From assembly GCA_963624975.1 (NCBI GenBank), contig CAVFRF010000064.1, positions 1-54,506 of the forward strand: a DNA stretch of 54,506 bases. Reading direction: 5' to 3'. Source of the stretch: Bacteroidaceae bacterium (GTDB lineage: Bacteria; Actinomycetota; Coriobacteriia; Coriobacteriales; CADBOM01). Of this stretch, positions 148-46,504 are shown piece after piece. The position numbers were made by a program, and so were the translations under genes. The notes beneath the pieces are model-generated. The model searched no databases. It saw only the letters and a program-made list of their open reading frames with translations, and had not been told where the DNA came from. Positions within the stretch are counted from its first letter, which is position 1. Each line of letters begins with the position of its first letter.

Positions 148-1407
148 TTACTCCGAAATCCGAATCGGTTGAACTTCTTCCATATCATCGGAAACAGGGA
201 TACATCCGAGCGATGCCAAAACGCAACGACCCACGTGATATCCCAGATTCACTGGCACCGCATTGCCAATTTGCCTGTATTTTGCCGTCATCTTTCCAGA
301 AAATTCCCATTCATCCGGAAACGTCTGGATACGAGCGTATTCCCGAACACTAAGCGGACGCGTCTCGGTGGGATGGCATCGTTCCGTCTGCTTTTGAGCC
401 GGAGCGCACGTGAGCGTGAGGCACGGTTGATCCCAGGACATCCTCCTCGCCATCCCGGTTCTTCCGCCCGAGAGATGAAAGCTCCCCTTCATGTACTCTT
501 TTTGCACGTCGATGGGAAGGTCGCGCCAGTTGCCGCCTTCCGGAACCATCGCCATTATCTCGGCTTTACGCTTCGGATAGGTCTGGCACTCGGATTCGGG
601 ACAACCGGCTAGCGCCTGTCTCAACGAAATAAAATAGTCCTTTTCTCTCGGGAATAGAATGGGGAGGTCGAGGTCTTTTCGGACAGCAAACAGAATTAGC
701 CTCTCGCGCTTCTGGGGGACATCCAGATACTGTGCCCGCAGAACCCGGTAGTTTACCTTGTATCCAAGCGAATCAAGAGTATGCAGCATCGTGTCGAGCG
801 TCCTGCCGCCATCGTGCTTCACAAGCCCGCGCACATTCTCGCCAATTGCGATCTTGGGATGTATGGCTTCGATTGCACGCGCGAATTCGAAGAAAAGCGT
901 ACCGCGCGTGTCTCCGAATCCCTTGCTCTTGCCCGCATACGAGAAGGCCTGACATGGGAACCCTGCTTGCACCACGGGAGTTCCCTCGTACTCGCCAAAG
1001 TCGAGTTCTCTCACATCGCCGGAAACGATGTTCCACTCCAAACCAAGCTTGTCGCTGTTGAATCGAAGCGTGGCAACGGCGTCTTTGTCTATTTCGTTGA
1101 GCATCACATGGGGCATGCCAGCATTATGGAAGCCCAGCGCAGTACCTCCAGCCCCTGCGAAAAGATCGATGCACGATGCCTCTCCGTAGGATACATCGCT
1201 TCTCAGAACCCTATATTCGGTAGCATCATCTCCACCGTTGAGCTTGCTCTGGAGTCTTTCAATTTCCTCGAGATTGAACAGTCGTCTATTGTTCTTGTCC
1301 CGAGTCGCTTTGATGAGCCCCATCTTATTCCAACGTCGGATTGTATCAACAGATACATCTAGAGCATGAGATGCTGCAGTTATGGTGACGTGTTTGCATT
1401 CTGCCAC
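148..1407 (-). CDS. DNA (cytosine-5)-methyltransferase with N-terminal MerR/excisionase-like HTH
   Basis: 419-aa ORF with a GTG start and GGAGGA 6 nt upstream. C5-MTase motifs are visible: DLFAGAGG (I), GFPCQAFS (IV, PCQ), GENVRGL (VI), QIGNAVPV (X). The first ~55 aa (ITAASHALDVSVDTIRRWNKMGLIKA..RLFNLEEIERL) look like an HTH domain. Confidence 0.93.
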   Translation of the reverse strand: MAECKHVTITAASHALDVSVDTIRRWNKMGLIKATRDKNNRRLFNLEEIERLQSKLNGGDDATEYRVLRSDVSYGEASCIDLFAGAGGTALGFHNAGMPHVMLNEIDKDAVATLRFNSDKLGLEWNIVSGDVRELDFGEYEGTPVVQAGFPCQAFSYAGKSKGFGDTRGTLFFEFARAIEAIHPKIAIGENVRGLVKHDGGRTLDTMLHTLDSLGYKVNYRVLRAQYLDVPQKRERLILFAVRKDLDLPILFPREKDYFISLRQALAGCPESECQTYPKRKAEIMAMVPEGGNWRDLPIDVQKEYMKGSFHLSGGRTGMARRMSWDQPCLTLTCAPAQKQTERCHPTETRPLSVREYARIQTFPDEWEFSGKMTAKYRQIGNAVPVNLGYHVGRCVLASLGCIPVSDDMEEVQPIRISE

Positions 1408-1423
1408 GAGAAATCCTCCAAGG

Positions 1424-1459
1424 AATCAATAACCCTTACATATGCAAGGGTTATTGATT
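1424..1459 (-). terminator. Perfect 14-bp stem-loop between the R and M genes (attenuator or terminator-like)
   Basis: AATCAATAACCCTT (1424..1437), loop ACATATGC, AAGGGTTATTGATT (1446..1459). It lies between the endonuclease stop (1487) and the methylase RBS and start (1407). There is no clear U-tract. Confidence 0.5.
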
Positions 1460-1486
1460 ATATCGCCTGACGGCTTTGGCTGAAGG

Positions 1487-2260
1487 CTATTCTTCGTCGA
1501 TAGGCACAATCTGATAAGACAACACATCGGGATGGCTCACTATATCTTCCGCAAGACATTCGATAGTCTCATCCAGCAGATTCGTGTTTGTGTAATCCTT
1601 GGCGCAATCGGAGAAAACATTGATAAGATCTTCGTAAAAATTCTCGTCGCCCGTGAGGTGATACCAGAATTCCTTGCCGGATAGGACAGGATAGTCCTGC
1701 TCGATGCGCTTGTAGTTCGCACTGATTTGAGAATGGTCACCATAGAGGATTCCAACGCAGCAATCAGTCATAGGATTGAAGTCGGCAAAATGATTTGTCC
1801 TTGCCAGATTCTTGAGTCCTGCAAAATGTCCTCTAATCGTATCCACGTCATCTTTGTTGATTGTCTGTGGGCCTGCCTTGAGCTGGCAATACTTCTTGCG
1901 TCCATCGACTACGTCGATGAATTCAATATCCATCCCTGCCGTTGTCGACGCATACCCCGAAAGAACCTCGTGGCAGAATGTCTGCACGTTGTTTCCAAAC
2001 GTGGTCGCAATCGAAGTACCCAGAACACGAGGGTAAATGAGAACTTTCGCCAAACTCTCAGGCGATTCATCCCCAAAGGCGAACGAAGCGAGGTAGTGAA
2101 TAGTGAAGGGATTGACGTTGAACTCCTTGAGCTTCGAGAGCTTCTGGGTGTTTCCCGCATGACTGTCTGCAATGGAAGTCTTGAAGAAATCCCGTGCCTT
2201 TACAAGAATCTCTTCGCGTTCCTGCTCATTCATAAAAGCCCCCAATCTTTTATGAGCCAT
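1487..2260 (-). CDS. Putative type II restriction endonuclease (partner of the C5 methylase)
   Basis: 257-aa ORF immediately upstream of, and co-oriented with, the methylase. It has a PD-(D/E)xK-like stretch GMDIEFIDVVDGRKKYCQLKAGP. No other recognisable domain, and the family is not assignable by eye. Confidence 0.6.
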   Translation of the reverse strand: MAHKRLGAFMNEQEREEILVKARDFFKTSIADSHAGNTQKLSKLKEFNVNPFTIHYLASFAFGDESPESLAKVLIYPRVLGTSIATTFGNNVQTFCHEVLSGYASTTAGMDIEFIDVVDGRKKYCQLKAGPQTINKDDVDTIRGHFAGLKNLARTNHFADFNPMTDCCVGILYGDHSQISANYKRIEQDYPVLSGKEFWYHLTGDENFYEDLINVFSDCAKDYTNTNLLDETIECLAEDIVSHPDVLSYQIVPIDEE

Positions 2261-2455: not shown

Positions 2456-2773
2456 TCAACCATCAGATCTCATATGTCAATGTCTTGATGGCCGGGTTCT
2501 CTTGCCAAGCATTTTCGAAAGGAGGTGATCACCTTGCGAAACGACAAGTAGTAGCAGCCGACAAAGTATAAACTCTGACGGCTGCTACGCTGGTGTGAGA
2601 ACACACCGTGTGACAACAGAAGCATCTCACGCCAGCCCAGCTAACAGAACTCAAAATTCCAAAAGGTGATACATCGCCGGAAGGGCAGGTGAGGAACATG
2701 CCTGGATTTTCGAGCCCATACACAAGTGCTTATCATCCAGTTGACGGCATCTTGGAATTCTCCGGGTGTTTCT

Positions 2774-3550
2774 ATGAAGCGCAATAGCATCAAGGTACTC
2801 GATAACGGATCCAAAGAGTACAGCGAAATCGACCTCTACAAGAAACTCAACTTTGAGTTCTTGCGTTACACAAATCTTACGCATGCGGCTGGCAAGCGCA
2901 ATCTCCCATCCCTCGTATGCAACACAAAAATTTTCCCTGACTACATTGCTTTGTCTAATCAGCCATCTCTTTTTCATAAAACCGAACTCACAGCAATTGG
3001 ATTTTGGGAATACGATATCGACTTCGATGGATTCGACGGGCTGTTCAACGCGATTTATTACAACAGGAAAGATCGTCTCGAATTCTATAAGAAGCGCTTT
3101 TCGAACGTGAAAATCTTCTTCACACCCGATTACTCTCAGTTTGGAGATGTGTCGGATATCGAATCTGATTACAGGTTGTTCAAAGATCGCGTAGTAGGAA
3201 TCTGGCTTGCCATCGAGCTCCACGCAGTGGTCATTCCATTTGTAACGGTTCCAACAATCGATAGCATGCCCTGGGCATTGAACGGTTTGGAGGATTGTTC
3301 GGTTGTTGCATTCAGCACCAAGGGCTATGTAACCGTCCCAGAAGAACGTTCAACGCTAAAAGCCATCGTTCGATGCACCGTGGATACGCTCGATCTGAAG
3401 ACGATAGTCGTATATGACGTATGTGGCTCCAACGATGCGGTCAACGACATATTCGCTTACCCGATTGAGCAAGGCATCGAGATCGTTGTACCCATGAATT
3501 CTCTCAAAGAACGCAACATTGAACGCAGGAGATTTCGCAATGCGCAGTAA
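2774..3550 (+). CDS. DUF4417-like protein (divergent paralog of 45001..45663)
   Basis: By-eye alignment to the second copy: FWEYDxxF vs FYEDDxKF, FTPDYSQF vs ISPDFSLY, YRLFKDR vs YRSRAF, VVIPFV vs PVIPNI, VVAFSTKG vs AIAVGSHG, KTIVVYD vs TTIVVYG. The start is uncertain: ATG 2774, or GTG 2726 as in the track. Confidence 0.55.
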   Translation: MKRNSIKVLDNGSKEYSEIDLYKKLNFEFLRYTNLTHAAGKRNLPSLVCNTKIFPDYIALSNQPSLFHKTELTAIGFWEYDIDFDGFDGLFNAIYYNRKDRLEFYKKRFSNVKIFFTPDYSQFGDVSDIESDYRLFKDRVVGIWLAIELHAVVIPFVTVPTIDSMPWALNGLEDCSVVAFSTKGYVTVPEERSTLKAIVRCTVDTLDLKTIVVYDVCGSNDAVNDIFAYPIEQGIEIVVPMNSLKERNIERRRFRNAQ

Positions 3551-4040
3551 CAACGGCCATCTTGCACACGGGACGACTGGAAATCCTCAAACTTCTATAG
3601 ATCAGGAATTCTATGCGTATGTCGTTCGCGATAACGAGCGCAGACTTAGGGATCTAGTATTGGACCCGATGATTGACGAGTCACTAGTAGCCGAGCTTGA
3701 ACGCTTGGAGGTAAAATTCAATCGCAAAGAAATGGTCTTCATCGCACGTGACAAAACAGGCCAGATTGTCTGGTTGGAGAATGGCACATCGAGCGCAGGG
3801 CTTACACATCTTGAGAAGCGTGGACATATAGGCGACTTGTCGAGAAAATTCTGCGTCGACGAATCGGATGTTCCCAGGCTCATTCGAAATATCGTGAGGG
3901 ATGGAAAGGTTGTCTCAAACAAACTTGTTGATCGCCATGGTCGCAAGGGATATGAACGAACCTACGAATATAGAGAACACAAGGTTGTTCTTGCCGCCAT
4001 CGGCACCAACGGTTTCTTGGTTACTATCTATCCTATTTAG
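3540..4040 (+). CDS. Toxin-like small protein (possible BECR/RelE-like RNase fold), function unknown
   Basis: ATG 3540 follows AGGAG at 8-nt spacing and overlaps the DUF4417 stop by 11 nt. The C-terminal half (IVWLENG..GLTHLEKRGHIGDL...YEYREHKVVLAAIGTNGFLVTIYPI) has the beta-rich ...VTIYP ending seen in DUF4258/BECR-type toxins. This is a by-eye judgement only. Confidence 0.45.
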   Translation: MRSNNGHLAHGTTGNPQTSIDQEFYAYVVRDNERRLRDLVLDPMIDESLVAELERLEVKFNRKEMVFIARDKTGQIVWLENGTSSAGLTHLEKRGHIGDLSRKFCVDESDVPRLIRNIVRDGKVVSNKLVDRHGRKGYERTYEYREHKVVLAAIGTNGFLVTIYPI

Positions 4041-4052
4041 AAAGGGAGCTTC

Positions 4053-4379
4053 ATGAAAACCATCAAGCTTATGCTCGATTACCTGCAAGGCCCCATATGG
4101 ATTAGTGATGTGGAAACAGGCAAGCCGATGACAGGTATCGACATTATTGACAACGATGAGCAGATCCGAGTTCTCAATTTCGAGATACAGAACGCTTATG
4201 ACTCGTATTACGAGTTTGATTCTCATGACCAAGCCTGCTGGTTCAACGAGGAGCAGGAGCGGAAAGACAAGGAACGCATGCTTGAGCTGTTTGCAAAGCT
4301 CAACAGCAGGCTCGACGAAATCAACGACGGGACATTCATTGTCGACGACCGCGAAACTCCGCGTATTCAGAAACTCTAA
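4053..4379 (+). CDS. Small acidic protein, immunity/antidote-like by position
   Basis: 108-aa ORF with AAGGGAG RBS, starting 12 nt after the previous stop. It is rich in D/E and has no recognisable domain. Confidence 0.5.
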   Translation: MKTIKLMLDYLQGPIWISDVETGKPMTGIDIIDNDEQIRVLNFEIQNAYDSYYEFDSHDQACWFNEEQERKDKERMLELFAKLNSRLDEINDGTFIVDDRETPRIQKL

Positions 4380-41042: not shown

Positions 41043-41360
41043 ATGCCGATGCGAGAGAAAGTCCGAAAACTTGGCAAGATCTCCATCCCGCTCGGAGAGG
41101 GAGTCCACCTCAAAGAAGGCGAGCACCCGCTCATAAGCGAACGGGTGCTCAGCTCCGCCCAGCTCGGCCAGGCGCTGAAGAGGCGCCGTCGAGAACTGGG
41201 CTACACACAGAAGACGGCTGCCGAGCTTAGCAACCACAGCGTTCGTGCTATAGGCGACATCGAGAGGGGCCGCAGCTCGGTGGGCGTTGGCATCGTGCTC
41301 GATTACGCGCTGTCGCTGGGCGTAGACCTAACGTTGTCGGTGAGGGGCAGGTCGCAATGA
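41043..41360 (+). CDS. XRE-family HTH antitoxin (HipB-like)
   Basis: HTH LGQALKRRRRELGYTQKTAAELSNHSVRAIGDIERG. The stop overlaps the hipA start (ATGA). Confidence 0.8.
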   Translation: MPMREKVRKLGKISIPLGEGVHLKEGEHPLISERVLSSAQLGQALKRRRRELGYTQKTAAELSNHSVRAIGDIERGRSSVGVGIVLDYALSLGVDLTLSVRGRSQ

Positions 41361-42643
41361 GGCTATACGTTCACAGGGAGTTCAAGGGACGCTACGAACC
41401 TGTCGGAGTCCTGCAGGACGACAGCGGCGCACCGTCGTTCTCGTACGCCGAATCATATCTGTCTTCCAACGATGCGGCACCGATATCGATAAGCCTCCCG
41501 CTCGCAAGCGAGCCTTTCGACTCGAACACGACGGCTGCGTTCTTCGACGGACTGGTGCCGGAAGGGTCGCTTCGCAGAAACCTTGCCGATGTCGCCAGAG
41601 CCGACAGACGAGACTTCCTCGCAATTCTCAATCAGGTCAGGAACGAGCCCATTGGCGCATTGGTGTTCTCTTCAGAAGCAGAGCTCACATTTCTCGATGC
41701 ATCCTATGAAGAGCTGCCGGCCAGCGAACTGAAGAACATAGCATCGATGCCGGAATCCACGGCATTGGACCTAACACTGAAGAGCAGGATCTCGCTTGCA
41801 GGCGCGCAGACGAAAATCGGGCTCTACCATTCTGGAGACGACCCTGAAGAAGGGTGGCATCTTCCCAGAGGCGGTGCCCCATCGACGCACATTCTCAAAA
41901 CATGCTCCGAGGCTTTTCCCGGAGAAACGGTCTGCGAAGCGCTGTACCTCAAGGCTGCGAAGAGAATCGATCTGCCTGCGGCAAACTGCTTTCTGATAGA
42001 GTCTGGCGCCCGAAACCCCATACTGGCCGTCGAGCGCTACGACCGCAGGTTTCCCAATGGGAACCAACGCATCATTTCAGGGCTTCCTGCACCGCTCAGG
42101 CTCCACCAGGAAGATATGTGCCAGGTGCTGGGAATTAGCTCGGGTTTGAAATACGAGGCGACGAGCACCGACTATCTCAATCTGATGTCCTTTGCCCTAA
42201 CCGGATGTTCGAGCGAGCCTACGGAGGACAGGTTCACGCTTGGCTATTTCCAGTTACTCGATTACTTGCTCGGAAATTGCGATAACCATCTCAAGAACTG
42301 GTCCATCCTCTACAGCGAAGACTGGAACGGTGCGAGGGTGGCCCCTCTCTACGATGTGGTGAACACGACGATCTATCCGCAGCTGGCGAGGGAGATGGGC
42401 GTTTCCTTCGGAGGAAGCCGGGTTGTCGACGACGTGACCGCCGATATGATCTACGAGCGCTTGGGCAATGCCGGCCTGGCTTCGTATTTCGTGAAACAGA
42501 TGTGCGCGGATATGAGAGAAGAGTTGGTACCAGCTCTCGAAGATGCGGCCAGCGAACTGGCGGAATCGGGCTTTCCGGAAGCGAAGAGCCTACTAGACGA
42601 AATCGAGCCTGGCATCAAACGCCGGCTCGAGGTAATAGCGTAG
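41357..42643 (+). CDS. hipA: HipA-family serine/threonine kinase toxin
   Basis: 428 aa. N-terminal coupling domain (FSYAESYL...PISISLPL, FFDGLVPEG), then LAGAQTKIGL and the catalytic NCDNHLKNWSILY. Confidence 0.88.
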   Translation: MRLYVHREFKGRYEPVGVLQDDSGAPSFSYAESYLSSNDAAPISISLPLASEPFDSNTTAAFFDGLVPEGSLRRNLADVARADRRDFLAILNQVRNEPIGALVFSSEAELTFLDASYEELPASELKNIASMPESTALDLTLKSRISLAGAQTKIGLYHSGDDPEEGWHLPRGGAPSTHILKTCSEAFPGETVCEALYLKAAKRIDLPAANCFLIESGARNPILAVERYDRRFPNGNQRIISGLPAPLRLHQEDMCQVLGISSGLKYEATSTDYLNLMSFALTGCSSEPTEDRFTLGYFQLLDYLLGNCDNHLKNWSILYSEDWNGARVAPLYDVVNTTIYPQLAREMGVSFGGSRVVDDVTADMIYERLGNAGLASYFVKQMCADMREELVPALEDAASELAESGFPEAKSLLDEIEPGIKRRLEVIA

Positions 42644-42696: not shown

Positions 42697-43227
42697 CTAC
42701 TCCTCAGGAGCTTCCAGCTTCACCACTCGCACCGGGGTGCCGTGCTCTTCCAGCAGCTTCAGCAGATCCGCCATGCGGATTCGCACCGATGCCGTGTTGT
42801 CGCATGGATGGCAGCCGATGAACTCGCGCGCCGCGCTCTCCTCGTCCAAGATGAACTGCACCTCGCAAGCCGCGTCGTTGAGCGCTCCCAGCGGATTGAC
42901 CGCTCCGGGGTACAACCCGAGCTTGGCAGCGAGATCCTTCTCGGAGGCGAACTGGAGCTTGCGCGAATCGAGCGCCTGCTGGATGCCCTTGAGTGGCACG
43001 CGCTTGTGGTCGGGCATCGACACCAGGTAGTAGTTGCGCTTCTTGTCGTCGCGCAGAAACAGGTTCTTCACCACGTCGTCCGCAAACCACAGGTCGAACC
43101 CGTCCAGGTCGTCCACCGTGAGCGCCGCTGGATGCTCGACGATCTCGTACTCCATCCCATGCTCGTCGAGTATCGCCAGCACGTCTTCCTTGGTGAGCGG
43201 GTTCGCCTGCTCAATCGTCTCAGCCAT
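42697..43227 (-). CDS. YbaK/ProX-type aminoacyl-tRNA deacylase domain protein
   Basis: Trimmed to MAETIEQ, giving 176 aa. KNLFLRDDKKRNYYLV and GAVNPLG are typical of prolyl-tRNA-synthetase-associated editing domains. Confidence 0.8.
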   Translation of the reverse strand: MAETIEQANPLTKEDVLAILDEHGMEYEIVEHPAALTVDDLDGFDLWFADDVVKNLFLRDDKKRNYYLVSMPDHKRVPLKGIQQALDSRKLQFASEKDLAAKLGLYPGAVNPLGALNDAACEVQFILDEESAAREFIGCHPCDNTASVRIRMADLLKLLEEHGTPVRVVKLEAPEE

Positions 43228-43334
43228 CTTATCGCCTCCGAAATTCGGCATTCGCAAAAAAATCACACGGCCAAGATGATACCAGCCCGCCCGCTACAGT
43301 CTCGCACTTTTTCAACAAGTTGAAGAAGAGTTGA

Positions 43335-43382: not shown

Positions 43383-43691
43383 TCATCGGCTATGGCTTTT
43401 TTGAAACTTGGCAAATGCGCCTGCCGCATCCTGCACGTTGCCTGCGGCGTAATCATCGTATCCCCGCTGGATTTTGCCGTGAATCTGTTCTTCGGTCATT
43501 TTTGAAGCATCAATGCTTTCGGGAGCTTTGGGAATAGTTACCGGAAATGGGATCCCTCCTACGAGCACCACTTGGGTCAAAAACATATCGACGGCTGTGG
43601 ACATCGGTATTCCGAGTCTCCCCAGAACGTTTTCTGCATCGTGCTTCAATGTCGGGTTGATCCTCAAATTGAGTGTTGCAGATTTATCCAT
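43383..43691 (-). CDS. RelB/DinJ-family antitoxin, with no cognate toxin adjacent
   Basis: N-terminal ribbon-helix-helix LNLRINPTLKHDAENVLGRLGIPMSTAVDMFLTQV. The stop lies 12 nt from the 36-bp repeat. Confidence 0.8.
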   Translation of the reverse strand: MDKSATLNLRINPTLKHDAENVLGRLGIPMSTAVDMFLTQVVLVGGIPFPVTIPKAPESIDASKMTEEQIHGKIQRGYDDYAAGNVQDAAGAFAKFQKSHSR

Positions 43692-43875: not shown

Positions 43876-44181
43876 ATGGAGTTGGGAAAAAGAATTCAGG
43901 AGCTCTTAGATGCTCGCAATATGAGTAGGAAGGAACTCGCGGATGCGACTGGACTGACTGAAGCGGCGATAAGCAGGTATATCACAGGTACCCGGATGCC
44001 AAAGTCCATCAGTCTCAGCGCTATCGCCAAGGCCCTAGATGTCACGTCTGACGAGCTGCTCGGTAACGTTAACGACACAATAGACGAAGTGGACGACGCT
44101 ATCAGGCTGGTAGCCCGCAACGCGGGAAGTATTACCAAAGAGCAGAAGAAATACCTCATCAATGCCCTCATCGGAGACTAG
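43876..44181 (+). CDS. XRE-family HTH regulator
   Basis: 101 aa. HTH LGKRIQELLDARNMSRKELADATGLTEAAISRYITGTRMP. Confidence 0.88.
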   Translation: MELGKRIQELLDARNMSRKELADATGLTEAAISRYITGTRMPKSISLSAIAKALDVTSDELLGNVNDTIDEVDDAIRLVARNAGSITKEQKKYLINALIGD

Positions 44182-44190
44182 GAGGATAGC

Positions 44191-44763
44191 TTGTACCTGG
44201 AACCCTCTAGATACGAGGAGCTAAACCGTGAGGTTGCCGACCTCATAGAGACATACGATGCGTGCGCGTACCCTTTGGACGTATTCGCTTTGGCGGGTAG
44301 GATGGGTATCGTGTTGAGATCATACTCGTCAATCCCCTTTACAGAGCGTTCAGCATTCCAGAACATCTCCAAAGACGCGTTCACCATCGCGTCTGGCGAG
44401 TACGAGGTGGACACGACATTCATTTGTTACAACCAAAACATGAACGGCGGCAGGCTGAGACAGAGCATCGCCCACGAAATCGCTCACATCTGGTTGGAGC
44501 ACCCAAACGACAAGGATCCCTTTGAGACCGAAGCCGAATACTTCGCTGCATATCTTCTAGCGCCCATACCCCTCATTATCAAATTAAGGCTAGCGAGCGT
44601 ATTGGAGGTTAAAGAGCGTTTCGGCGTAAGCTTCGAGGCCGCAAGAATCTCCCTCGAGCGAGCTGGTAACAGATGCCGATGCGGCAAGGCGGGATTTGAA
44701 TACGAGTACGGGATCATCAACATGTACAACCTGAAAGGAGGTGGTTGCCTTGAAATCGCCTAG
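44191..44763 (+). CDS. ImmA/IrrE-family zinc metallopeptidase
   Basis: TTG start with GGAGGA upstream. HEXXH motif HEIAHIWLEH followed by EAEYFAAYLLAP, the typical DUF955/ImmA layout. It is paired with the upstream XRE gene. Confidence 0.85.
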   Translation: MYLEPSRYEELNREVADLIETYDACAYPLDVFALAGRMGIVLRSYSSIPFTERSAFQNISKDAFTIASGEYEVDTTFICYNQNMNGGRLRQSIAHEIAHIWLEHPNDKDPFETEAEYFAAYLLAPIPLIIKLRLASVLEVKERFGVSFEAARISLERAGNRCRCGKAGFEYEYGIINMYNLKGGGCLEIA

Positions 44764-45000
44764 CAAAAAGCGGCCGCCGGAATTGGCGTTCCAGCGACCG
44801 CGGGCGGTATGGCACGCCATACCTAGTGCAACGAGTATTGTGCCATGCCGTCCGTCGATATCGATTGCAATTCAGAAGAAATCCGACGGAAGGATACGGT
44901 GTTCCAATGGTCCAATACCATCACGTTTGTAAGTTCGTCTTAGCTCTGCATTTCGGTGTGGGTAGTACGCATCTTGCTTCTCTGAGGGGAGGTGAGTAGT

Positions 45001-45663
45001 ATGACCAAGGAAAATTACAAACGCAGCGGATGTGTTGACGTGTTCAGGTCTTATCTCGTCAAAGACGCAACATTCGCCGGTGAGCTTGAGATTCCTACAC
45101 TGAAGCCTGTCGACCTGCTGCCCGGCGAAATGAAACCCTTTTCGCAGGCCATTTCCTCTAGGAAGAGGCATATCTGGGTCCACTTCTACGAGGACGATGC
45201 GAAGTTCGAGCGCATCTGGAACAATCCAAAGCGGTACCTGAAAATGCTGGGAGAGTTCGACGGAGTAATATCTCCCGATTTCAGCCTGTATAGGGATATG
45301 CCACTTGTCATGCAGTACTGGAACATTTACAGGTCGAGGGCATTCGCTCATGCGCTGCAGTCAGCTGGCGTACCCGTCATCCCCAACATTCGCTTCGGGG
45401 ATTCTAGAACATGGGAAGCATGTTGCCTTGGAATCCCCGTCAACTCTGCCATCGCCGTTGGAAGTCATGGCAATCTGAAGAACGCCGAAGACCGCCGACA
45501 TTTCACGGCTGGCCTCGACTATGTTGTCAAGGCGGTGCGACCGACAACCATCGTTGTATATGGAGCTGCGCCAGATTCGATATTTGGCGTATACATCAAG
45601 CAAAGTATTCGGGTCGCCTCATTTACGAGCGAATTCGCTAGCTCTCGCGAAACGAGCGCATAA
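45001..45663 (+). CDS. DUF4417 domain protein
   Basis: ATG 45001 sits 8 nt after GGGGAGG. WVHFYEDDAKFERIWNNPKRYL...GVISPDFSLYRDMPLVMQYWNIYRSRAF...GVPVIPNIRFGD matches my recollection of the DUF4417 consensus. Confidence 0.75.
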   Translation: MTKENYKRSGCVDVFRSYLVKDATFAGELEIPTLKPVDLLPGEMKPFSQAISSRKRHIWVHFYEDDAKFERIWNNPKRYLKMLGEFDGVISPDFSLYRDMPLVMQYWNIYRSRAFAHALQSAGVPVIPNIRFGDSRTWEACCLGIPVNSAIAVGSHGNLKNAEDRRHFTAGLDYVVKAVRPTTIVVYGAAPDSIFGVYIKQSIRVASFTSEFASSRETSA

Positions 45664-46157
45664 TGGGTGGCGGTTATCATGGTGGCTTCGGAGCCACCTC
45701 CGGCAGTGTCGCAATGGGCGATGCTACTTTCATGGAAAGATCCGATCAGTTTCTCAGATACATCCGCAAACGATCTGATGTTGACCCTGGCGGGAAATTT
45801 GACATTATTGCGCATGGAACCGCCCAAAACATGCAGATAGAGCACAACGGGAAGAAGATACTGGTCAACTCTCGCACTGCTGCGAATATGATCAAGAGGA
45901 TTCCAGACTATAAGGGGCAAAGCATAAGACTTCTTTCCTGCAGCACCGGATCGAGAAATGCTGGCTTTGCCCAAAACCTTGCAAATAAACTTGGCGTGAC
46001 AGTCTATGCCCCTAACGATAAATTGTGGGCATATAGCGATGGAAGCCACATTATCGCCCCCGTCAGCTCCATTCCAGACAAATACGGCAATCCTCAGCCC
46101 GACACCAGCCGTCTTGGAAAATTTGTAAAATATACCCCGGGAGGTAACAAACGATGA
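45663..46157 (+). CDS. Unknown 164-aa protein with His...Cys dyad pattern (clan-CD/CPD/DUF4347-like, by eye)
   Basis: The start overlaps the DUF4417 stop (TAATG). The N-terminus is Gly-rich. FDIIAHGT and, about 45 aa later, IRLLSCSTGS each follow hydrophobic strands. This is followed by FAQNLANKLGVTVYAP. Confidence 0.6.
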   Translation: MGGGYHGGFGATSGSVAMGDATFMERSDQFLRYIRKRSDVDPGGKFDIIAHGTAQNMQIEHNGKKILVNSRTAANMIKRIPDYKGQSIRLLSCSTGSRNAGFAQNLANKLGVTVYAPNDKLWAYSDGSHIIAPVSSIPDKYGNPQPDTSRLGKFVKYTPGGNKR

Positions 46158-46504
46158 ACTGCCCAAAATGTAACAGCTCAACTATTTCTAAAATCGAAGG
46201 CTCCACTTTGATAATCAAATGCACAGAATGCGAGTGGTCGGTTGCAACGAGCTATGTTGACCCGATCTACGAAGACGAGACCGTTTATATCGTTCGGGTT
46301 GGTCAGGTTCTCGACCCTAACAAAGAGCAGCTCAAAGCCGTCTCTTCTGTAGCCGGAGTTAACTTCATCGCTGCAAAGAAAACCTTGGAAACCCCGGGTG
46401 CAACTTTGATTGAAGGTCTTGCTCCAGAGATTAAAGAAAGCGTAGCGAAGCTTTCTAAATCAAATGTCGCCATCACCATCGAACCTGAGTATCCCTATCT
46501 CTAA
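46154..46504 (+). CDS. Zinc-ribbon protein with an L7/L12-CTD-like C-terminal half (immunity/antidote-like by position)
   Basis: ATGA overlap with the upstream gene, and GGGAGG RBS. CPKC..(14)..CTEC forms the zinc ribbon. The C-terminal KEQLKAVSSVAGVNFIAAKKTLETPGATLIEG resembles the ribosomal L7/L12 C-terminal domain pattern. Confidence 0.6.
   Translation: MNCPKCNSSTISKIEGSTLIIKCTECEWSVATSYVDPIYEDETVYIVRVGQVLDPNKEQLKAVSSVAGVNFIAAKKTLETPGATLIEGLAPEIKESVAKLSKSNVAITIEPEYPYL

Follow-up and report, generated by a model that had tools for sequence, protein, structure and literature searches.

The 54,506-nucleotide (nt) stretch of contig CAVFRF010000064.1 (assembly GCA_963624975.1) analyzed here, hereafter the window, carries a three-gene module at positions 2774-4379 (locus A) and a second, differently loaded copy at 43876-46504 (locus B). 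This module is read as a three-component polymorphic toxin module, in which a protein of the DUF4417 family and a short leader on the toxin are kept constant, the toxin domain is swapped, and the immunity protein is matched to the toxin. We give this reading a probability of about 0.7; the role of DUF4417 and the delivery of the toxin are the parts that we infer. The module appears to be undescribed in the searchable literature, where DUF4417 was rarely mentioned and never tied to toxins; most subscription journals lie outside that literature, so a prior description is possible.

Locus A consists of gene 1 for the DUF4417 protein (2774..3550, plus strand, 258 amino acids (aa), ATG start), gene 2 for the toxin (3540..4040, plus strand, 166 aa, ATG start, AGGAG ribosome-binding site), and gene 3 for the immunity protein (4053..4379, plus strand, 108 aa). 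Genes 1 and 2 overlap by 11 nt, and a gap of 12 nt separates genes 2 and 3. The isoelectric point (pI) was 8.7 for the basic product of gene 2 and 4.4 for the acidic product of gene 3. An earlier note on this DNA had reported the same three reading frames with the same overlap, gap and acidic last gene, and its coordinates were exact. The guanine and cytosine (G+C) content was 46% at locus A and 50% at locus B, compared to 63% in the surrounding chromosome.

Gene 2 showed no significant match in Pfam, NCBIfam or PADLOC. About 50 homologue clusters were collected, and a family profile built from 24 of them matched one solved structure only, 7m5f_C (E = 2.6e-20, profile positions 36-163). 7M5F is the C-terminal (CT) toxin domain of CdiA from Serratia marcescens BWH57, which was described as a BECR-fold ribonuclease (RNase) without annotated relatives (PMC8616854). 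The AlphaFold2 model of gene 2 had a mean predicted local distance difference test (pLDDT) score of 83, with residues 1-18 disordered, residues 18-41 forming a helix of lower confidence, and residues from about 45 to 166 forming a confident domain. Using this model, Foldseek returned 7m5f_C as the only significant neighbor in the Protein Data Bank (PDB), with E = 1.1e-8, a target-normalised TM-score of 0.74 and 30% identity. Thus three parts are distinguished in gene 2: a Gly-rich leader at residues 1 to about 20 (MRSNNGHLAHGTTGNPQ), a helical linker at about 18-41, and a domain at about 45-166 that resembles the BECR-fold RNase domain of CdiA-CT(BWH57).

The active-site residues of 7M5F were proposed as candidates only (H47, E51, H52, and R89; PMC8616854). 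Three of these candidates, H47, H52 and R89, aligned with the near-invariant H90, the invariant H96 and the mostly conserved R135 of gene 2, and E51 aligned with R94. Among 1.84 billion representative proteins, 1306 relatives of the gene 2 domain were detected. Many of these were long proteins of 500-1254 aa (e.g., 1254, 848, 768, and 501 aa) with the domain at their extreme C-terminus. The sequence and model comparisons together identify the product of gene 2 as a toxin, a homologue of the CdiA-CT-type BECR-fold RNases built from a leader, a linker and an exchangeable C-terminal domain.

Gene 3 had no significant match in Pfam, NCBIfam or PADLOC. It always accompanied the T1 toxin domain in the clustering of 55 loci described below. 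The 1254-aa protein with the gene 2-type domain at its C-terminus is directly followed by a 108-aa gene that is 55% identical to gene 3 (E = 4e-44), and there is no DUF4417 gene nearby. Because this long toxin carries the same domain and then a gene 3 homologue, the gene 2 domain and gene 3 form a portable cognate pair. These comparisons identify gene 3 as the cognate immunity protein of gene 2, moving with the toxin domain between delivery architectures.

Gene 1 was matched by the DUF4417 model PF14386 with E = 1e-10 and 41.8 bits, above the gathering score of 28.9, and the divergent DUF4417-like identity proposed in the earlier note was thereby confirmed. The likeness to the product of 45001-45663, first seen by eye, was recovered by BLASTP (E = 5e-7, 25% identity over 156 aa). 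The earlier note had made the relationship of the two loci depend on a match of gene 1 to DUF4417 or to this second copy, and gene 1 matched both. PF14386 was carried by 120 of 120 gene 1 homologues among the matches listed. These results assign gene 1 to a divergent, '259-type' subfamily of DUF4417, as a predicted conserved accessory component of the cassette.

A joint alignment of both DUF4417 subfamilies showed that D81, P118-D119-x-S121, R139, I154-P155, G171, G184, I211/V213/Y214, and F227 are invariant. The AlphaFold2 model of gene 1 (pLDDT 89, predicted TM-score 0.84) consisted of repeated beta-alpha units in an alpha/beta TIM-barrel-like fold, with the invariant residues at or just past the strand ends. 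Foldseek comparison of the DUF4417 model with the PDB gave only weak TIM-barrel neighbors (UlaE, 2p10, and carboxyltransferases; query-normalised TM-score of 0.43 or less), and the viral library gave only unnamed phage proteins. The DUF4417 profile produced chance-level matches only against PDB sequences. DUF4417 looks like an enzyme in its model, and its chemistry was left unassigned because there was no informative structural neighbor. A relationship to tRNA-guanine transglycosylase or DpdA was considered, based on the TIM-barrel likeness and on QueD beside some cassettes, and was rejected as no significant match was obtained. The QueD neighbor itself, a PTPS/QueD-family gene directly 3' of the cassette in four related contigs (L001-L004:6908-7327), is probably a host gene and a coincidence.

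Locus B contains five genes on the plus strand. They encode an XRE-family helix-turn-helix (HTH) regulator (43876..44181; HTH_3, E = 2.5e-14), an ImmA/IrrE-type (M78) metallopeptidase (44191..44763; Peptidase_M78, E = 1.8e-13), a canonical DUF4417 protein of 220 aa (45001..45663; PF14386, E = 2.6e-63), a toxin of 164 aa (45663..46157), and an immunity protein of 116 aa (46154..46504; pI 4.8) with an N-terminal zinc ribbon, which pairs one-to-one with the locus B toxin family. The zinc-ribbon matches of this third gene in NCBIfam were weak and were the sole NCBIfam matches in the scan. The locus B toxin combines the leader MGGGYHGGFGATSGS with a His/Cys domain (AHG...LLSCxTG). It has 272 homologues, some of which were named 'filamentous hemagglutinin' by the Joint Genome Institute (JGI), and in some longer proteins the domain sits C-terminally. 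Peptidase_C80 matches, all of them weak, were found in 14 of 25 members of this toxin family, and comparison of the toxin profile with PDB sequences returned nothing meaningful. The locus B toxin is probably a cysteine protease related to clan CD, judging from its sequence.

The toxin domains of the two loci were unrelated (hhalign probability 5%), and BLASTP gave no match between the two third genes. The earlier note was right on this point as far as the domains are concerned, but its statement that genes 2 and 3 share nothing with their counterparts at 45663..46504 did not hold for the N-terminus of the second genes, which carry a related Gly-rich leader. This leader on both second genes and a homologous structured element upstream of both DUF4417 genes had been overlooked.

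Three tandem paralogous genes (106, 101, and 103 aa) lie at 32010-33091 of the window in a low-GC islet (47%), without a Pfam match, and resemble an orphan immunity-like array. They were considered as relatives of the locus B immunity protein; the likeness was superficial, and neither BLASTP nor Pfam supported it.

In many chromosomal settings that are unrelated to one another, DUF4417 and a small third gene adjoin a homologue of either the gene 2 toxin or the locus B toxin. This recurrence of the trio across dozens of unrelated contexts was confirmed to be beyond chance. A joint alignment of the two DUF4417 subfamilies was too divergent to serve as the locus-search query. So that gene 2 would play no part in the selection, a search was performed with the gene 1 profile alone and one genome per species. 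It yielded 46 loci in Coriobacteriia, Bifidobacteriaceae, Clostridia, Lactobacillus, and Fibrobacter. At nearly all of them, the next gene overlapped the DUF4417 stop codon. The products of these next genes (139-505 aa) began with the leader M-R-S-x-[ND]-[ST]-G-L-A-H-G-T-S-G-S-P-Q...E-Q and then diverged.

For clustering, the 46 loci were combined with nine loci found earlier, both window loci included, and the toxins of the resulting 55 loci were compared past residue 45. Eleven toxin-domain clusters and 12 third-gene clusters were obtained. The multi-member toxin and third-gene clusters matched one-to-one (six, about 12, 10, 8, 6, 4, and 4 loci each), and the rest were singletons. At least five toxin families shared one leader in the 259-type loci. 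A one-to-one match of toxin and third-gene clusters behind a shared leader is the defining pattern of a polymorphic toxin system. The loci as predicted from sequence combine the general hallmarks of such systems, a constant N-terminus with a variable C-terminal toxin and a co-varying downstream immunity gene. From the two window loci, the earlier note had recognized that the first gene stays constant while the second is swapped and the third is matched to it; the clusters of 55 loci and the CdiA-CT homology bear this out.

The toxin domains identified among these loci included EndoU_bacteria (E = 3e-26) and DUF6883 (E = 2e-27), the latter with a DUF4926 partner (E = 3e-16). The third genes included DUF7674 and a pentapeptide-repeat protein of 198 aa, the latter at L035:5263-5859. 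Pentapeptide-repeat proteins are often DNA mimics that protect gyrase. This third gene hints, by analogy, that its partner toxin may target a DNA-binding enzyme.

Gene order was also compared among the loci. XRE and ImmA/M78 genes were located directly upstream of DUF4417 in about 16 of the about 40 genomic loci whose upstream sequence was long enough. In its usual complete form, seen at locus B, the module is a five-gene set of XRE, ImmA, DUF4417, toxin, and immunity; locus A is without the two regulators. A permuted order, HTH, ImmA, toxin, immunity, and DUF4417, was found at L008:241-2945. Therefore, the genes stay linked without a fixed order.

The leader type followed the clade of the DUF4417 protein. 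The GLAHGTSGSPQ leader was found with 259-type DUF4417 in 39 of 49 loci. Short classical DUF4417 was accompanied by an MGGGxxGGFGxTxG leader (6 loci) or by GGRGAS (8 loci), and ParB-fused DUF4417 by GGRGAS in 64 of 70 loci. The CdiA-CT-like domain of locus A stood behind either leader type, depending on the DUF4417 present (L005 and L009 compared to the window). Furthermore, P0050 with the locus A toxin type and P0146 with the locus B type were identical at 18 of their first 21 residues (MGGGxGxGLDFGxTWGSGRLP). Leader type thus co-varies with DUF4417 clade and not with toxin domain across the predicted proteins. The case for an interaction between DUF4417 and the leader, which we infer, rests mainly on this co-variation. 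The three leader variants have a common core of roughly GG-[LFR]-x-G-[AT]-[ST]-x-G, and a single origin is plausible on this likeness. A full-text literature search with the leader motif returned nothing relevant.

Relatives of the module were frequent in phages. The classical DUF4417 profile detected at least 209 loci in IMG/VR, and tblastn detected DUF4417 in 507 phage records, including gene 1 of mycobacteriophage L5, Streptococcus prophages, and Roseburia phage Jekyll. The phage proteins are usually 340-390 aa long, a size that fits an N-terminal ParB fusion; fusion of DUF4417 to ParB-CTPase folds in phages has been described (bioRxiv 10.1101/2025.10.10.680097). Some phage records annotate DUF4417 as a nuclease or methylase. 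Phage DUF4417 sits directly upstream of the terminase genes. At 73 of 80 viral loci, one to five same-strand open reading frames (ORFs) 3' of DUF4417 carried a GGRG motif near the N-terminus, typically as MGGRGAS, and the motif occurred in just 2 of 1911 opposite-strand ORFs of the viral loci. Leader proteins of this kind were noted in L065-L144 and at L147:4073-4752.

GGRG came immediately after the initiator Met in 126 of 144 phage leader ORFs. Six phage leader ORFs had xNxQxF immediately before GGRG. This matches the motif at which Prp cleaves ribosomal protein L27 as well as the capsid and scaffold proteins of 80alpha (PMC9405229). Therefore, with either Met or a Prp-type site before the motif, the mature N-terminus of most phage leader proteins would be GGRG. 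One phage leader protein contained a Gln_amidase/Tox-PL1 glutamine deamidase domain (E = 1e-16) and was followed by a small gene. Some toxin domains matched PHROG families annotated as head maturation protease. These gene contexts suggest that the system is phage-derived.

A structured element of about 95 nt was detected upstream of both DUF4417 genes of the window. The gap of about 230 nt upstream of gene 1 aligned with the gap between ImmA and DUF4417 in related loci, and two hairpins with compensatory changes were found in it. The locus A element (2548..2641, plus strand) lies about 130 nt upstream of the DUF4417 start, with 70.1 bits for the covariance model R1 and a fold z-score of -4.25. 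The seed of R1 consisted of eight loci, the locus A copy included. Two copies outside the seed were also found by R1: one in L027, and the other at locus B (44765..44857, plus strand; 42.5 bits, E about 1e-5), immediately past the stop codon of ImmA, where pairs were retained through compensatory changes. The element was thus present upstream of both window DUF4417 genes, in L027 and in seven other loci.

Over these ten sequences and 31 pairs, 94.7% of the cells were paired and 19 of the 31 pairs had changed on both sides, a level reached by none of 500 shuffles, with an alignment that is model-fitted and thus favors structure. As a control, the pairing partner was shifted by 1-3 columns, and only 31-44% of the cells were paired. 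Rfam returned chance-level matches only (E = 0.46 and E = 0.6). Candidate roles for the element are those of a 5' RNA leader, a terminator of the XRE-ImmA unit, or an operator. Next to the locus A copy, about 50 nt at 2490-2547 of the window resemble the 3' end of the ImmA gene of related loci, around 'KGG' codons. A tblastn search for an ImmA remnant upstream of locus A gave nothing significant at the protein level. This segment may be the remnant of a deleted XRE-ImmA unit.

Both loci have defense-related or toxin-related neighbors. Locus A is divergent from a type II restriction-modification operon (148-2260, minus strand), as the earlier note had seen. The restriction enzyme of this operon is of the EcoO109I type (E = 4.5e-31), and its methyltransferase is a C5 cytosine enzyme (E = 1.9e-76). 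The methyltransferase is fused to an N-terminal MerR-type HTH. The window starts within the low-GC island that holds this operon, and the left edge of the island is thus outside the window. Three genes lie directly to the left of locus B: one for a kinase toxin of the HipA family (41357-42643) and, on the minus strand, one for a tRNA-editing protein of the YbaK type (42697-43266) and one for a RelB antitoxin that seems to be an orphan (43383-43691).

As to mechanism, DUF4417 may recognize the leader and then process, modify or load the toxin. DUF4417 would thereby be the counterpart of the peptidase or adaptor that other polymorphic toxin systems dedicate to such a task. The module may descend from a phage late-operon layout of DUF4417 (often ParB-fused), variable MGGRGAS proteins, and terminase. 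Such an ancestry would make the packaging of leader-tagged effectors into virions during head assembly the probable ancestral route. Because chromosomal cassettes usually stand under an XRE/ImmA switch, stress or a mobile element may induce them. Locus A may have lost this switch, and it now stands back-to-back with the restriction-modification operon.

A more specific version of this mechanism takes DUF4417 and the Gly-rich leader as a phage-derived trafficking system. DUF4417, with ParB in phages, would recognize or process the leader, and the effectors would enter virions and be injected with the DNA. The leader in most phage copies would be an exposed GGRG, made by Met removal or Prp-type cleavage, and the chromosomal cassettes would be reduced 'ammunition' modules that load toxin into the particles of resident or infecting phages, which would thereby become vehicles for toxins aimed at other bacteria. 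We hold this version only tentatively and judge it rather doubtful as a whole.

Several observations weigh against the reading as a polymorphic toxin module with DUF4417-dependent delivery. The toxins are without a signal peptide, and genes for an export apparatus are absent from their surroundings. The DUF4417 fold is enzyme-like with invariant Asp, Ser and Arg but has no informative structural neighbor (TM-score of 0.43 or less), and the ParB fusion hints at a DNA-directed rather than a protein-directed activity. When gene 3 was compared with the 7M5F chains, including CdiI, as a single sequence and as profiles of 4 and 12 sequences, there was no match at E up to 10; other PDB sequences gave no meaningful match either. 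About 10 of the 49 259-type loci and 6 of the 70 ParB-fused loci fall outside the leader patterns used. The 259-type is nearly absent from viral contigs, with 2 loci, neither of them clearly phage, and virion delivery is therefore unsupported for this type. Finally, gp1 of L5 (L145, 411-2084) is a DUF4417 protein annotated 'nuclease' beside the left cos end, and gp2 (259 aa, weak DUF3626) has no recognizable leader. Therefore, DUF4417 can exist without a leader protein.

Some of these points would be accommodated by an intracellular tripartite toxin-antitoxin or abortive-infection system, which we rank as the main rival for the chromosomal cassettes. Gene 3 would then be the antitoxin, DUF4417 would act as a sensor or regulator, freeing or activating the toxin when a phage infects, and XRE/ImmA would be an infection- or SOS-responsive switch. 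The lack of a signal peptide and the scarcity of the 259-type in viral contigs fit this explanation. The cassettes are also small low-GC islets (0.46-0.50 compared to 0.63 in the host) among housekeeping genes, with no secretion or phage structural genes near them, and their neighbors include the type II restriction-modification operon, HipA, RelB, and a Type ISP restriction enzyme. However, a PADLOC-DB 2.0 scan of the six cassette proteins of both loci gave no significant match, the only hit being a weak DrmC match of gene 2 (E = 0.0068). The parallel to modular defense systems, also drawn in the earlier note, is neither favored nor disfavored. Abortive-infection effectors seldom need a dedicated immunity protein that co-varies one-to-one, and the same toxin/immunity pairs are also found on long toxins with several domains, a layout typical of exported polymorphic toxins. 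An intracellular role also leaves unexplained why different toxin families retain a leader whose type tracks the DUF4417 clade. We regard this explanation as unlikely.

Adjacency without functional meaning was also weighed. DUF4417 would be a DNA-directed phage enzyme, such as a nuclease or a modification enzyme acting with ParB, and the toxin/immunity pairs would be independent selfish genes at a hotspot upstream of the packaging genes. The ParB-CTPase fusion, the nuclease or methylase annotation in some records, and L5 gp1 with its leaderless neighbor are consistent with this. Against it, the three genes are kept together with stop/start overlaps in dozens of non-phage contexts, their linkage survives the permuted order at L008, and leader type tracks DUF4417 clade across toxin families. 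This possibility is considered very improbable. The polymorphic toxin module, with a constant DUF4417 and leader, is retained as the preferred reading.

The module was compared with known systems. S8-PTS is a three-component polymorphic toxin system of Gram-positive bacteria with a subtilase accessory and toxins that carry a signal peptide and BetaH (Li, Tan and Zhang 2022, PMC9424270). It shares with the present module a conserved accessory enzyme, a toxin with a conserved N-terminus and swappable C-termini (mostly BECR RNases in S8-PTS), and an immunity gene. The present module differs in its DUF4417 accessory, in a toxin N-terminus of only a leader of about 20 aa and a helix, in having no signal peptide, and in its probable phage derivation. 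MuF toxins (Jamet et al. 2017, PMC5576092) are likewise phage-borne polymorphic toxins with immunity genes, encoded in the packaging module by the terminase and portal. Their toxin is fused to the MuF head protein, whereas here the Gly-rich-leader protein is small and separate, DUF4417 has its own gene, and free chromosomal cassettes also occur.

The CdiA-CT/CdiI pair of BWH57 (7M5F; PMC8616854) has a toxin domain homologous to that of gene 2 in sequence and fold. Unlike that pair, the present module has no CdiA filament, CdiB or translocation domain, its gene 3 has no detectable CdiI similarity, and its host is Gram-positive (Coriobacteriia-like). The capsid-targeting sequences of T4 and the Prp-processed capsid and scaffold proteins of 80alpha (PMC9405229) resemble the leader as short N-terminal peptides on proteins made alongside head proteins. 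However, the T4 capsid-targeting sequence is an unrelated motif, and the leader proteins are known from genes alone and not from virions.

These results would provide the first functional context for DUF4417, a widespread phage protein family that is also present in many gut bacteria. The link between DUF4417 and toxins is a testable hypothesis and a new entry for mining toxin and immunity domains; several toxin/immunity families found here are without any Pfam model. Both the leader motif and the structured element upstream of DUF4417 can serve directly as search handles. Furthermore, the module offers a candidate mechanism for phage-associated interbacterial antagonism in gut and rumen microbiota.

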